From positions 4,672,001-4,736,000 of the forward strand of contig OZ252098.1 of assembly GCA_965248355.1 (NCBI GenBank): a DNA stretch of 64,000 nt, in the 5' to 3' direction. Shown here one piece after another: positions 9,338 to 64,000 of the stretch. Positions within the stretch are counted from its first letter, which is position 1. The number at the start of each line of letters is the position of its first letter. A program made the position numbers and the translations under genes. The stretch comes from Candidatus Latescibacterota bacterium. GTDB lineage: Bacteria; Latescibacterota; UBA2968; UBA8231. The notes under the pieces are model-generated. The model saw nothing but the letters and a program-made list of their open reading frames with translations, did not search any database and had not been told where the DNA came from.

Positions 9338-9379
9338 AGCACAGGTGCCTCTGTTGCCTCGCACGACAGAAGTCCCGCC
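9338..9379 (+). repeat. Diverged direct repeat, copy 1 (copy 2 at 14926-14965)
   Basis: AGCACAGGTGCCTCTGTTGCCTCGCACGACAGAAGTCCCGCC vs AGCCCAGGTGCCTCCGTTGCTCGCACGACAGAAGCCCGCC: 2 mismatches and 2 indels. Confidence 0.85.
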
Positions 9380-9494
9380 CGTCTTGCAGCTACAACCAGC
9401 TTTGGCCCGGCTACTCGACCAACGAGGAGGCTGACCGCCGAGAGGTGGACGAACTGCTGAAGCAATGGAAGTCACCAATCATGTCGGTACTACG

Positions 9495-10918
9495 GGCATT
9501 GTCCCGATCTTAGTTGAAATAGCACAGGCTCCCATCGTTACGTTTGATACGAGAAATCCCCAAGAAGCCTCGTATCGGTAACCCAAGGAGCCTGCCATGA
9601 GCAAGCTACAAGCACGGAAGAAGGGCGTCAAACGGACCGTGGCCATCGGCCCCGTGAACCGCCAAGCCACCGCGTCGATGGACGATCTGGAGACTCGCAT
9701 CGAGGTCATCCAGCTGCTGATCCCTTTGGGTCTGCAGGCGGTCTCGGAGGAGCTGCAGCAGTCGGTCGAGGCCTTGGCCGGACCTCGGTATCAGCGCAAG
9801 GGTCCGGATCAGGCGTTGCGCCGCTGGGGGGCGCAGGCCGGGTCGGTGTACCTGGGCGATCAGAAACTGCCGGTCGAGGTGCCGCGCGTGCGCGATGTGG
9901 TCCGCGGCACCGAGGTCCCGCTGGAGGCCTATCAGGCCCTGCAGACGCCGAGGCAGATGGACCAGGGGCTGTTGTTGCGGGTGCTGAAGGGCCTGGCCAC
10001 GCGCAACTACGAGGCCTGCGCCGAGACCGTCCCGCAAGCCTTCGGTCTGTCCCGTTCCTCGGTCTCTCGCCGGTATGTGAAAGGCACGGCGCGCAAGCTG
10101 GCCGAATTCCAGCAGCGATCCCTGGAAGGCTACGACCTGGTGGCGCTGTTTCTGGACGGCAAGAGCTTTGCCGACGAGGAAATCCTCATCGCCCTGGGCG
10201 TCACTGTGGAAGGACACAAGATCCCTCTGGGTTTCGTGCAGGCGGCGACCGAGAACGAGCGCGTCTGTCGTCGCTTCCTGGCGGAGCTGGTCGAGCGGGG
10301 CCTGCAATACGAGGCCGGGCTGCTCGTGGTGATCGATGGAGGCAAGGGCCTGTACAAGGCAGTGCGGTCGGTGCTCCAGGGCCATGCCTGCGTGCAGCGA
10401 TGCCAGTATCACAAGCGCCAGAACGTGGTCTCGTACCTGCCCAAGAGCGAGCAGGGCGGCGTTCGTCGAAAGCTGGAAGCGGCGTATGGGCACTCGACGT
10501 ACGAGGAGGCCCAAGCCGCCCTGGAGGCGCTGAAACCGGGGTTGCAGTTGATGAACCAGTCGGCCCTGCGCAGCTTGGAGGAAGGCCAGCAAGAAACCCT
10601 CACGCTCCACCGCCTGGGCCTGATGCCGATGCTGAAGGCCTCCTTCCGTACCACCAACTGTATCGAGAACGTCAACAGTCTCCTGGAGCAGTTGACGCAC
10701 AACGTGCGGCGCTGGACCAACTCGTCGCAGCGTCACCGCTGGGTCGCCACGGCGTTGCTTGACATCGAACCTCGCCTCCGCCGGGTCAACGGCTACCACC
10801 ACCTGCCGATGCTCCGGCAAGCGCTCCAAGCCGAGCTCGGCATCCAGCAGCTCGCGATGACGGGCTGACTCATCCACTCGAGCCTGGGCTACGTTTCAAC
10901 TGAGAATGGGACTTGCCC
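9495..10918 (+). mobile_element. IS256-family insertion sequence, complete
   Basis: Imperfect terminal IRs of ~38 bp (left GGCATTGTCCCGATCTTAGTTGAAA; right end reverse-complemented GGGCAAGTCCCATTCTCAGTTGAAA). 8-bp TSD GTACTACG at 9487-9494 and 10919-10926. Confidence 0.93.
9597..10868 (+). CDS. IS256 family (Mutator-like) DDE transposase
   Basis: VEVPRVR, LFLDG, VIDGGKGL, QRCQYHK and RTTNCIENVN motifs. Confidence 0.95.
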   Translation: MSKLQARKKGVKRTVAIGPVNRQATASMDDLETRIEVIQLLIPLGLQAVSEELQQSVEALAGPRYQRKGPDQALRRWGAQAGSVYLGDQKLPVEVPRVRDVVRGTEVPLEAYQALQTPRQMDQGLLLRVLKGLATRNYEACAETVPQAFGLSRSSVSRRYVKGTARKLAEFQQRSLEGYDLVALFLDGKSFADEEILIALGVTVEGHKIPLGFVQAATENERVCRRFLAELVERGLQYEAGLLVVIDGGKGLYKAVRSVLQGHACVQRCQYHKRQNVVSYLPKSEQGGVRRKLEAAYGHSTYEEAQAALEALKPGLQLMNQSALRSLEEGQQETLTLHRLGLMPMLKASFRTTNCIENVNSLLEQLTHNVRRWTNSSQRHRWVATALLDIEPRLRRVNGYHHLPMLRQALQAELGIQQLAMTG

Positions 10919-10955
10919 GTACTACGGCGGCCGCTGTGATGCCGGGGAAGATCGC

Positions 10956-61413: not shown

Positions 61414-61420
61414 CCGCCCG

Positions 61421-62626
61421 TCATCCAGTCCCCGGAAACTCCTCCCCACTCATCCGTGTCTCTTCTGGTTTCGCGAAATACCCCAATTCCTCTCTTAGCA
61501 TCCTCGCCTGCTCCTGATCTTCGCATGTCCAATCCTGTTTGTGCAGGTAGAATACGTCCAACGAGAAGCCACACGATGTTGCTGGATCTTCCGTTGCCAA
61601 GCCTACGACCGTCATAGATTCCTGCCGTAAGTCCCTAGCAACCCAACATCGACCAGCGAGTTCCACAAGTCTGTCGTCGCGGGACACTCCGGACTTGGTG
61701 GTGAGGAATACGTATTGAACCCCGGATGGAGAGGGAATAAAGCGCGATCTGATCCGCGACGATTCAAGAAACTCCATCGCGTAGTTCGACAACAATCTTC
61801 GATGAAACCTGTTTTCCCGTGCCATTACCCGAAGGATCCGTTCAACATCTGATAATTCGGTTGAAGCGCCTGGAAAATCAGAGATTAAGCGCTTGGACCG
61901 AAGGTCACTGGCAAGCAACTCGATCAGCCTATCCCAAAAGTAGCTATCCGCATCTGCTTCCTTCCTTCTGATGAATTCATCTTTCCTAGTAAGGCTCTCC
62001 CATAGGTTGTCCTTTAGTACGTAAAAGTCGGGCCCCTCGGGAAAAGTCCTCCCTTGGTGAAGGTAAAAGGCTAGGAGATCCTCTTCGCCACCACCGTCAA
62101 AGAGAGTGAGAACCCCTCTCTCATACAGAGCCTCCTTGTCGCTCAGGTATTTCGCAAAGTCCTCAATAGTGTCCAATTCGCCCATGATCACATCGAGTGA
62201 CTTCTCGTCCAGAACATGGACGAATCCCTTGCCGAAGTCGCCAAAGTAGATTGGGGTTTTTCCTCTCCCCCCCAGAGCAACGGCCAAGTAGTGCACCTTA
62301 CGCCTGTCAAGATCAGGCAGGGCAAGCCCCTTTTCTCCAGTAGAGGTGATTGCATGCGTGGCCGACTCAAGCCACCGCGCTGCCCCGTATATCTGTTTAC
62401 AGGACTTGTCGATTGCCCTCTTTCGCCACCGTTTCAAACTAGTCGACATCTCGTCCGTCTCGTCGATCTGTATTTCCTTGACTGAGACAATCACGATGTC
62501 GGGATCACAAACTATCAGGATATCGCAGAGTTCTTTTTGGCTCTTTCCCCGTGGATTCGGATAACTCCATAGGGATAGAAATGACTTCGAGCACAGTCTA
62601 TACACAAGTTCCTCGGAAGGTGTCAA
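61421..62626 (-). CDS. Low-GC hypothetical protein with NERD/PD-(D/E)xK-like nuclease N-terminus
   Basis: KELCDILIVCDPDIVIVSVKE...KQIYGAARW; visibly lower GC than its flanks; TTG start. Confidence 0.7.
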   Translation of the reverse strand: MTPSEELVYRLCSKSFLSLWSYPNPRGKSQKELCDILIVCDPDIVIVSVKEIQIDETDEMSTSLKRWRKRAIDKSCKQIYGAARWLESATHAITSTGEKGLALPDLDRRKVHYLAVALGGRGKTPIYFGDFGKGFVHVLDEKSLDVIMGELDTIEDFAKYLSDKEALYERGVLTLFDGGGEEDLLAFYLHQGRTFPEGPDFYVLKDNLWESLTRKDEFIRRKEADADSYFWDRLIELLASDLRSKRLISDFPGASTELSDVERILRVMARENRFHRRLLSNYAMEFLESSRIRSRFIPSPSGVQYVFLTTKSGVSRDDRLVELAGRCWVARDLRQESMTVVGLATEDPATSCGFSLDVFYLHKQDWTCEDQEQARMLREELGYFAKPEETRMSGEEFPGTG

Positions 62627-62789
62627 AGTTCGCTAGCTCCTTGAATTGGCTGGGCGCCAGGCTTTTCGTATGGACCGCCCCCACGGACTGGATCTTCGAC
62701 AAGGGTTCGGTCATGGTCCGATAGTCGATTCTCTCGGAGAAGGGTCCGGACCCTCATCCGATGGAATCCTTCACCGATCAGGGACTCCA

Positions 62790-64000
62790 TCACCAGCCCC
62801 CCTCCATCTCCGGGTTGCCCCGGTCCTCGATCTCCAGCGCCTCCTGGGCCCGGCGGATGACCTTCGCCTCCAACTGCCCCTGCCGCCCCAGGTCGGCCAG
62901 GGCGGCGTAGGCGATCATGGCGGCGTCGACCTCGAAGAACCGGCGCAGGGCGGCGCGTGACTCGCTGCGGCCGAAGCCGTCGGTGCCGAGGGCGACCGGG
63001 GGCCTCGGGAACCAGCGCGCCACCGAGTTGGGCAGGGACTTCACGTAGTCGCTGGCCACCACGAAGGCGCCGGTCTCGCCCTCCAGGCACTGCTGCACGT
63101 ACGGCGCGCGGGGCTCCTCGCCGGGGTGCAGCAGGTTCCAGCGCTCGGCGTCGGCGCCCTCCTGGTGGAGCTGCTTGAAGCTGGTGACGCTCCACACGTC
63201 GGCGGCCACGCCGTACTCCTCCTCGAGGATCCGCTGCGCCTCCAGAACCTCCATTAGAATCGCCCCCGAGCCGAAGAGGTGGGCTTTCTTCTTGCGCCGC
63301 GGATGGGCTGACGCGCGCAGCCGGTACATCCCCTTCAGGATCCCCTCGCGGGCCCCCTCGGGCATGGGCGGCATCTCGTACGAGGCGTTGGTCACCGTCA
63401 GGTAGTAGATGACGGGCTCGCCTTCCTGCTGCATGCGGCGGATCCCCTCCTCGACGATGACGGCCACCTCGTAGCCGAGGGCGGGGTCGTAGGCGACCAC
63501 GTGGGGATAGCCGTAGGCGGCGATGTGGCTGTGGCCGTCCTGGTGCTGCAGGCCCTCGCCGTTGAGGGTGGTGCGGCCCGAGGTGGCGCCGATGAGGAAG
63601 CCCCGGGCCCGCTGATCGCCGGCGGCCCAGATCAGGTCGCCCACGCGCTGGAAGCCGAAGATCGAGTAGAACACGAAGAAGGGCAGGGTCGGCACGCCGT
63701 GGGTGGAGTAGGCCGTGCCCGAGGCGATGAAGGTGGACAGGGCCCCGGCCTCGGTGATGCCCTCCTGGATGAGCTGCCCGTCCCGGGCCTCGCGGTAGTA
63801 GGTGAGGCTCTCGGAGTCGACGGGCTCGTAGAGCTGGCCGATGTGGGAGTAGATGCCGTACTGCCGGAAGAGGCCCTCCATGCCGAAGGTGCGGGCCTCG
63901 TCGGGGACCATGGGCACGATGAGCCGCCCCTGCCCGGGGTCGCGCAGCAGCTTGGCGAGGATGCGCACCAGGACCATGGTCGTCGACGCCCGGCGGCCCC
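62790..64000 (-). CDS. aceE: Pyruvate dehydrogenase E1 component, homodimeric type (5' part outside window)
   Basis: PDEARTFGMEGLF, EGITEAG, GFQRVGD, GRTTLNGEGLQHQDG and LGTDGFGRS motifs. Confidence 0.96.
   Translation of the reverse strand, partial: GRRASTTMVLVRILAKLLRDPGQGRLIVPMVPDEARTFGMEGLFRQYGIYSHIGQLYEPVDSESLTYYREARDGQLIQEGITEAGALSTFIASGTAYSTHGVPTLPFFVFYSIFGFQRVGDLIWAAGDQRARGFLIGATSGRTTLNGEGLQHQDGHSHIAAYGYPHVVAYDPALGYEVAVIVEEGIRRMQQEGEPVIYYLTVTNASYEMPPMPEGAREGILKGMYRLRASAHPRRKKKAHLFGSGAILMEVLEAQRILEEEYGVAADVWSVTSFKQLHQEGADAERWNLLHPGEEPRAPYVQQCLEGETGAFVVASDYVKSLPNSVARWFPRPPVALGTDGFGRSESRAALRRFFEVDAAMIAYAALADLGRQGQLEAKVIRRAQEALEIEDRGNPEMEGGW

Follow-up and report, generated by a model that had tools for sequence, protein, structure and literature searches.

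Introduction

How does a bacterium gain a gene at the very end of one of its own genes, leave that gene whole and keep a second, slightly different copy of its end on the far side of the new DNA, with no integrase nearby? This question is raised by a stretch of 64,000 nucleotides (nt) from the genome of a Candidatus Latescibacterota bacterium, an uncultured symbiont (assembly GCA_965248355.1, contig OZ252098.1, positions 4,672,001–4,736,000), which we call the window and whose own numbering is used below. The genome, termed G000, is a single contig of 5.5 Mb with ~68% G+C (GC), and is 95.7% complete with 4.2% contamination. A first-pass annotation, made from the letters of the window, had described five gained cargo blocks in it, each flanked by direct copies of a resident gene end, and had ascribed them to homology-facilitated illegitimate recombination (HFIR) with DNA from related strains.

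We followed up the five repeat pairs by self-BLAST of the window and local alignments, by a gene map based on Pfam, PADLOC and NCBIfam, and by comparison with four relatives of the same genus in which the region is syntenic (G002, G004, G006 and G007; 85–94% identity to the window). All five pairs were recovered at the places described. Four are real scars, recent or recurrent, of a kind already on record, the insertion with long target duplication, while the fifth pair is old. Pairs 1, 4 and 5 are very probably insertions of this kind. That the incoming DNA stemmed from a related strain and brought its own allele of the anchor gene together with the cargo is the reading we favour, although we consider it close to an even call.

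Insertions flanked by duplicated gene ends

The clearest cases are pairs 4 and 5. The copies of pair 4 measure 123 nt, lie on the minus strand and are 95.1% identical. The intact copy (58824–58946) is the 3' end of an intact ankyrin gene with its stop codon at 58835, the stranded copy (57778–57900) holds the last ~105 nt of this second ankyrin gene and the spacer downstream of it, and the 923 nt between them (block 4, 57901–58823; GC 0.64 against 0.71–0.73 in the flanks) carry a collagen-like lipoprotein gene on the plus strand (58208–58684) with a lipobox and Gly-X-Y repeats, to which PADLOC and NCBIfam offered only weak collagen matches. Pair 5 consists of two 75-nt copies, likewise on the minus strand, which are 82.7% identical. 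Its intact copy (62782–62856) is the 3' end of the intact aceE gene (minus strand, 62790 to beyond the window), and its stranded copy (61339–61413) joins the final 67 nt of aceE to the opening 8 nt of the ankyrin gene that follows, whose start it supplies; the start of the gene after aceE overlaps the aceE stop. The cargo between them (block 5, 61414–62781, 1368 nt, minus strand) has a GC of 0.52 against 0.71 and holds a gene of 401 amino acids (61421–62626, minus strand) whose N-terminus is weakly NERD-like and whose family is large and uncharacterised. It had been called nuclease-like, a label for which we find a sub-threshold NERD match (E 0.08) and, among more than 2500 matches in an unnamed family, one homologue that NCBI names a NERD protein; the closest homologues in the protein search were 93, 87 and 85% identical, no PADLOC or NCBIfam family was found, and the protein atlas holds only unnamed clusters.

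Both cargoes are absent from the syntenic site in all four relatives, where the G000 flanks abut with one repeat copy common to both (subject overlaps of 76–115 nt). Empty-site alleles with a single copy, which the first-pass annotation had named as a check on its reading, were in this way found for pairs 4 and 5 in four out of four genomes, and insertion, duplication and empty site, along with the exact limits of each cargo, can be read directly from these alignments.

The same empty sites would also arise if cargo and both repeats were ancestral and recombination across the two repeats had removed the cargo in the relatives, whose empty sites would then be deletions. Direct repeats promote deletion, and the four relatives may form one clade, for which a single loss could suffice. 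Furthermore, repeat-flanked variable segments are enriched for empty alleles in other species (PMC2884548). Against such losses speaks the composition of the cargo (GC 0.52–0.65 in a 0.70 background) as well as its rarity. Among 168 phylum genomes, the NERD-like gene was detected in five, one of them G000, with no counterpart above 55% identity, the best match at that value lacking a flanking long repeat; at this site it is present in none of the nine other genomes of the genus, among which only G006 has a paralogue, 44% identical, at another place. For the collagen-like gene, 30 of the 76 family genomes contain relatives, at 40% identity or less. The origin of the repeats would, moreover, still need explaining. 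We therefore consider ancestral loss very unlikely, and gain appears favoured because cargo GC is 0.52–0.65 against 0.68–0.73 in the flanks of the blocks overall and because the NERD-like and collagen-like genes are rare, that is, on composition and rarity and not on parsimony alone.

Block 1 is larger and carries a restriction-modification system. The left copy of pair 1 (9338–9383, 46 nt) is intergenic, after an AP_endonuc_2 gene, the right copy (14926–14969, 44 nt) lies upstream of an oligopeptide ABC-transporter binding-protein gene, and the two are 89% identical. Between them (9384–14925; GC 0.64–0.65 against 0.68–0.72 in the flanks) we find a Type IIG MmeI-like restriction-modification gene (10956–13745, minus strand; a fused enzyme scoring 1154 bits in PADLOC), a RhuM-Fic/Doc gene (13758–14951, minus strand; PADLOC candidate PDC-S23) and an IS256-family copy (9494–10919). 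Since the contig of G004 stops short of this site, block 1 can be read in G002, G006 and G007 only; all three lack the cargo at the syntenic site and have 435–2000 nt of other DNA in its place, with a single partial repeat copy of ~30 nt. The two G000 copies have a common left part that is missing from the relatives. The IS256 copy is bounded by its own 8-bp target duplication, and we therefore regard its insertion as an event separate from the gain of block 1. A composite transposon can be ruled out for the block, with only one such copy there and that copy bearing its own 8-bp duplication. As an observation on the element itself, about 36 copies at 96–99% identity are spread over the genome, which marks it as recently active.

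Pair 2 had been read as flanking a gained DUF429 gene and does not belong in this series. Its two 26-nt copies (24/26 identical, both on the minus strand) are the start of a PhyH gene (37584–37609) and the start of the DUF429 gene (38301–38326; gene 37719–38324). Both copies and DUF429 itself are present in all four syntenic relatives, and the PhyH and DUF429 genes have the same first codons in five species, which marks the pair as an old, conserved gene-start duplication outside the recent process. Of the five blocks described as gained cargo, lineage specificity thus holds for blocks 1, 4 and 5, whereas pair 2 is old and pair 3, discussed below, is complex.

Taken together, the copies are 83–96% identical, a wider range than the ~90–95% first given, and, as had been claimed, no sequence is common to the pairs. 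Each repeat unit has only two copies in the 5.5-Mb genome, pair 4 showing in addition weak matches to the gene ends of ankyrin paralogues, so that no pair belongs to a multicopy dispersed element, a finding that the first-pass annotation had named as a refutation. With leucine-rich-repeat (LRR) and ankyrin arrays excluded, 24/26 matches spaced 300–6000 nt apart occur at only two loci of the window, pairs 2 and 3. A chance origin of the repeats is excluded, because three shuffled windows gave 0, 0 and 0 by the same repeat criterion. The named gene content (IS256, MmeI-like, Fic, DUF429, DUF6785, YefM-YoeB, soxR, ankyrin, collagen-like, aceE) was right by Pfam, PADLOC and NCBIfam, and the anchors are intact, open frames being kept in soxR, the second ankyrin gene and aceE. 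The description of the repeats as copies of gene ends fits pairs 3, 4 and 5, which are 3' ends, but not pair 1, which is an intergenic stretch. Likewise, a cargo rich in defence and toxin–antitoxin genes describes the variable blocks of the whole window, among which are the Type IIG enzyme, RhuM-Fic, YefM-YoeB, YafQ-RelB and a Schlafen/AlbA_2 protein, but not blocks 4 and 5.

Apart from the IS256 transposase, Pfam finds no recombinase in the window, in agreement with the claim that no integrase is present. The repeats could nevertheless be worn attachment (att) sites of small integrative elements moved in trans, with the recombinase encoded elsewhere or lost, comparable to cis-mobilisable elements (CIME-like). 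Integrative islands do target gene 3' ends and supply a replacement end (PMC2853133), and the resemblance extends to direct repeats that duplicate the 3' end of the target and leave the gene intact. However, the repeats described here are mutually unrelated and without common core, so that each would need a separate recombinase, while the whole genome yields only three tyrosine and one serine recombinase matches, none of them within 1 Mb of the window. Cargoes of single genes of 0.9–1.4 kb, the lack of any tRNA gene as a target and duplication end-points that vary, for soxR between three species, are further differences from integrative islands, and we hold an att origin to be most improbable. 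Xer/dif-type modules are ruled out by the lack of a sequence common to the repeats.

A different objection is that the repeats are artefacts of assembly, namely joins between strain haplotypes in a metagenome-derived genome. The completeness and contamination values suggest a metagenome assembly, and related strains co-occur in sponge samples. We therefore placed contigs of four public runs (X19, X23, X24 and X1) on positions 44000–63999. One X19 contig of 6576 nt (depth ~10.7) spans 56415–62990 with 0 differences and 0 gaps, thereby running through pairs 4 and 5 in full, cargo and repeat copies alike, and a second covers 44725–45631; X19 may be the source sample, in which case it supports the assembly with a different assembler and not an independent occurrence. 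Among the joints listed for X23, X24 and X1 none crosses either cargo, which says nothing either way, and their depth over both cargoes is below that of the flanks, contig depth being no measure of frequency. Part of the NERD-like gene is matched without a difference by a 684-nt contig of run X23, which comes from another study. In addition, G007 and G006 have their own versions of the pair 3 duplication. For the repeats as a whole we regard the artefact explanation as practically negligible.

A recurrent site at the end of soxR

Pair 3 shows the longest duplication. Its stranded copy (42447–42602, 156 nt, minus strand) sits 39 nt after a transglutaminase-like gene and repeats the final 150 nt of soxR together with 5 nt more; the intact copy (45573–45728, minus strand) is the 3' end of the soxR/MerR gene (45578–46192, minus strand), and over the 156 nt the two are 95.5% identical. 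The DNA between them (42603–45572, GC 0.65) carries a DUF6785/DUF6784 membrane-protein gene (42937–44787, plus strand) and YefM-YoeB (44903–45367, minus strand). The claim that this cargo was gained does not hold for DUF6785, since each of the four relatives also has that gene between soxR and the transglutaminase-like gene. YefM-YoeB is found only in G000 and G004. With DUF6785 in four of four, pair 3 fails a simple empty-site test, in which a relative lacks the insert and has a single repeat copy; about 260 nt between the copies are found only in G000.

Duplicated soxR ends are not confined to G000, and relatives carrying both copies, which according to the first-pass annotation would argue against recent gain, do exist in part. 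G007 has both copies, its own stranded soxR end being 203 nt long, differing from its intact copy at 20/156 sites and having its cysteine motif destroyed. G006 has a remnant of 78 nt followed by 8 kb of other DNA, and no remnant is present in G002 and G004. The end-points of the duplication thus differ by species, with 156 nt in G000, 203 nt in G007 and 78 nt in G006, and the site appears to be a hotspot at which such events have happened repeatedly in several species.

The DUF6785/DUF6784 gene itself shows an unusual pattern. Its frame (43040–44780) is 96–98% identical, at all three codon positions, to those of four other species, against 77–90% at the third positions of 11 neighbouring genes, and in all four comparisons identity rises abruptly at the two frame boundaries; an in-frame stretch of 171 nt near 44175 is missing from the G000 gene. 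The pattern resembles a recent spread of one gene across species, and because the frame is 96–98% identical where neighbouring third positions are 77–90% identical, gene flow between these species is real. A broader reading is that single-gene cassettes in this group of sponge symbionts move between species by an undescribed, recombinase-free route aimed at gene ends. We regard it as improbable; it rests, among other points, on DUF6785 being near-identical at synonymous sites in five species and breaking off at the frame ends. Should one process explain both the scars and the spread of DUF6785, it would constitute a general mechanism of cassette exchange, which the scars would make testable.

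Scars elsewhere in the genome

A seed-and-extend scan of the whole genome for isolated repeats of at most 350 nt and at least 80% identity, 300–10,000 nt apart, returned 63 direct against 4 inverted pairs, a raw ratio inflated by 22 multicopy, 6 in-frame and 4 paralogue-like pairs. The remaining direct pairs comprise 11 that touch a gene 3' end, among them pairs 3 and 5, and 20 others; pair 4 was classed as multicopy on account of its third, weak match. In the 41 two-copy pairs, inner GC is more than 3 points below that of the flanks in 15 and above it in 2. Twelve loci of this survey were fetched and seven of them compared with the relatives. Locus D61 (G000 5432948–5437168) is clean, with a 44-nt direct repeat covering a GC-rich palindromic spacer and a gene 3' end, a cargo of 4.1 kb with GC 0.60 and an empty single-copy site in all four relatives. 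In total we count ~12 gene-end scars genome-wide, three of them in the window, which makes up 1.2% of the genome.

The pair at locus D40 is a perfect 60-nt repeat. One of the survey loci that are not simple empty sites is a patchwork insertion of ~635 nt specific to G000 (genome positions ~4290336–4290970). Its first 60 nt repeat, without a mismatch, the end of a gene 2.7 kb upstream, and it includes a segment of ~400 nt that is found elsewhere in the four relatives at 85–89% identity.

Two alleles or one duplicated sequence

What the comparison shows is that, in the G000 lineage, foreign or strain-variable blocks of 0.9–5.5 kb landed at or just inside resident gene ends, leaving 44–156 nt of target on both sides, with one copy completing the resident gene and the other remaining as a stranded fragment. 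The incoming DNA would have come from a close relative in which an anchor-end allele of its own already stood beside the cargo; here, donor and recombination route are what we infer from the sites. The route could be of HFIR type, with one homologous exchange in the anchor and one illegitimate join inside the resident anchor, or of Campbell type, with a circularised fragment integrating by a single crossover. Under either, the two copies would be unlike from the beginning, the duplicated stretch could have any length and the anchor gene would stay whole; with the same product, the two routes are indistinguishable here. Selection would keep only insertions that leave the resident gene whole, which would explain why gene ends are what is duplicated. 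The full statement, integrase-free insertion with long target duplication by way of a donor allele, is in our estimate evenly balanced between right and wrong.

The question is whether the two copies of a scar began as two alleles or as one sequence. In pair 5 they differ at 13/75 sites, compared with 8–14/75 between alleles of different species and 8–13 between each copy and the relatives, and are thus as far apart as alleles of different species; the stranded copy keeps an aceE tail like that of the relatives, and it is the tail of the intact aceE that has changed and become one codon longer. In pair 4 the intact copy has four private changes, all synonymous, and the stranded copy two amino-acid changes, and in pair 3 four of the seven differences are synonymous. 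We pooled pairs 3, 4 and 5 with D61 as a clean scar outside the window, which gave 30 differences over 397 sites. At 11 of the 30 both states occur among the four relatives, which vary at 69/397 sites; 9 are private to stranded copies, 8 are private to intact copies and 2 are of other kinds. Decay of a single copy would be expected to give several-fold more private changes in the stranded copy and few shared states. If the copies had begun identical, a rough expectation would be 2–6 shared states out of 30, a figure that depends on how unevenly mutation is distributed among sites. Owing to the 11/30 shared polymorphisms and the near-equal private changes (8 vs 9), the pooled pattern favours two alleles.

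The most serious rival is that the duplication was made from resident DNA at insertion, with copies that were identical at birth and diverged later by mutation and recombination. Nicks 44–156 nt apart, followed by fill-in and end-joining of a captured fragment, could produce it, as could a replication template switch upstream of a break. To our knowledge, no enzyme makes staggered breaks of such variable length. A Ku gene is present, and its family matches only 1 of 14 control genomes; the repeat of D40 is perfect at 60 nt; and the copies of pairs 3 and 4 are sisters with common derived states missing from the relatives, as is the common left part of the pair 1 copies. Published repeats can also be perfect or nearly so (47/47 and 44/46, for example; PMC2853133). 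Set against this are the balance of 8 intact to 9 stranded private changes, the 11/30 differences that reuse states of the relatives, and the between-species distance of the pair 5 copies despite a lineage-specific insertion. Resident duplication remains a serious contender, although we consider it unlikely.

Several observations weigh against the donor-allele reading that we favour. The copies of pair 4 differ at 6/123 sites, against 8–15 to the relatives, and those of pair 3 at 7/156, against 17–22; as sisters they also fit duplication of the resident sequence or gene conversion between the copies. Later homologous recombination with relatives, overwriting one copy, could give the same pooled pattern. 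Homology of 44–156 nt at 83–96% identity is a poor RecA substrate. A donor of the cargo was found neither in the 168 phylum genomes nor in a species-genome scan, and no donor-derived tract could be called in the anchors from the private changes of G000 along aceE, the ankyrin genes and soxR-Rieske; these changes follow local variability in aceE and are mosaic throughout the ankyrin gene. As regards the original proposal of HFIR, the allele idea therefore has some support, whereas for HFIR itself neither donor nor anchor tract came to light. G000 may, moreover, be the outgroup of the five syntenic genomes, which would leave parsimony undecided between gain and loss. Five survey loci (D6, D59, D56, D40 and D29) are not simple empty sites, with the inner segment present in relatives or a patchwork structure, and 5 of the ~11 variable blocks of the window lack a long repeat at their edges, so that the proposed route is not the sole one. 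Besides the single Ku match, G000 has one match each to ComEC and DprA; this presence of competence genes says little, as their families match 10–11 of the 14 control genomes.

Relation to known insertion systems

The first-pass annotation considered the structures unlike a target site duplication (TSD). Relative to transposons this is correct, since 44–156 nt of variable length match no transposon TSD and only the IS256 copy fits with its 8 bp. As a general statement it goes too far, given that insertions with long target duplication show this very pattern (PMC2853133). In that report, Furuta, Abe and Kobayashi (2010) define inserts of <20 kb with no other mobile element, flanked by repeats of >30 bp that are unique and often imperfect (44/46, 384/412 and 417/423 among the examples given), with a related genome that has one copy; they describe cases for all restriction-modification types in many, mostly naturally competent, bacteria, suggest DNA breakage tied to the restriction enzyme, and leave the mechanism open (PMC2853133). 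The scars described here agree in having repeats of >30 bp (46, 156, 123 and 75 nt) that are unique in the genome, pair 2 failing this criterion with its 26 nt. They further agree in inserts of 0.9–5.5 kb without recombinase (the IS256 of block 1 being a separate event), in the empty single-copy site of pairs 4 and 5 in four of four relatives and, for pair 1, in absence from three of three with a partial copy left, and, for block 1, in carrying a Type IIG restriction-modification gene, as in the published cases. Long target duplication is said to have been first described by Nobusato, Uchiyama, Ohashi and Kobayashi in 2000, in Gene 259:99. What differs is that three of the four recent blocks (3, 4 and 5) are without a restriction-modification gene, because of which breakage by the restriction enzyme cannot apply to them, and that the host is an uncultured symbiont with several scars within 64 kb.

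HFIR products obtained in experiments are reported to replace or delete recipient DNA; the process is characterised by an illegitimate join at a microhomology of 3–10 nt and by RecA-dependent uptake of DNA through natural transformation. The scars share with HFIR a homology on the anchor side only, foreign DNA attached to it, the lack of a recombinase of their own and DNA from relatives, and depart from it in the join inside the anchor that would leave a stranded end, which is our own extension. That the intact copy would be of donor type finds some support in the private (8 vs 9) and shared (11/30) states, with no anchor tract detectable. In outline, HFIR joins foreign DNA to a one-sided homology (PMC6382021, where Meier and Wackernagel 2003 is cited for it).

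Minimal mobile elements of Neisseria (Saunders and Snyder 2002; Snyder et al. 2007) are different whole-gene cassettes between the same two conserved genes, exchanged through the recombination of the host (PMC3082526). The five repeat-less blocks of the window and the DUF433 site fit this concept. The four repeat-flanked blocks do not, as a duplication is present, whereas cassette exchange uses two-sided homology and produces none. In the three species surveyed by Touzain et al. (2010), 10–18% of small variable segments are repeat-flanked, mostly by repeats of <30 bp (PMC2884548).

Insertions with long target duplication were first reported ~25 years ago, chiefly in connection with restriction-modification genes, and still lack a mechanism. 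In the uncultured symbiont described here, the same signature surrounds ordinary accessory genes. Because the two copies of a scar differ, they can be used to ask whether such copies begin identical or as two alleles. If the allele reading is true, each scar would preserve a trace of both donor and recipient from one gene-gain event, and would show that host recombination by itself suffices to insert genes where gene ends are densely packed. In annotation, the stranded fragments should be taken neither for att sites nor for pseudogenes with a history of their own.

Variable sequence without flanking repeats

The five repeat-less variable blocks all sit exactly in intergenic spacers. They are 20600–22775 with Schlafen/AlbA_2 and a ParA-like gene, 35153–36754 with a 305-amino-acid frame (35505–36422) to which no PADLOC or NCBIfam family could be assigned, 44799–45575 with YefM-YoeB, 47887–48584 with YafQ-RelB and 55791–56656 with DUF433. 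At the DUF433 site, G002 and G007 hold ~1.2 kb of other DNA, which is cassette-like variation.

At the right edge of the G000-specific block 35153–36754 lies a unit of ~115 nt (36598–36714) that recurs at at least seven other places of the genome with 91–92% identity and has further occurrences in G007 and G017, perhaps as a small dispersed repeat resembling a miniature inverted-repeat transposable element (MITE). In G002, G006 and G007 the ankyrin gene at 50532–52679 exists twice or three times, in tandem or close by, and in the same three genomes the LRR genes at 53015–54683 have only matches of 69–73% elsewhere, so that this array of eukaryote-like repeat proteins varies in copy number between species. 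Finally, the pyridoxal-dependent decarboxylase at 30795–32328 is split into two overlapping frames matching Pfam positions 1–219 and 222–374, a frameshift or sequencing error, and the LRR protein at 28554–30772 is likewise split into two frames.

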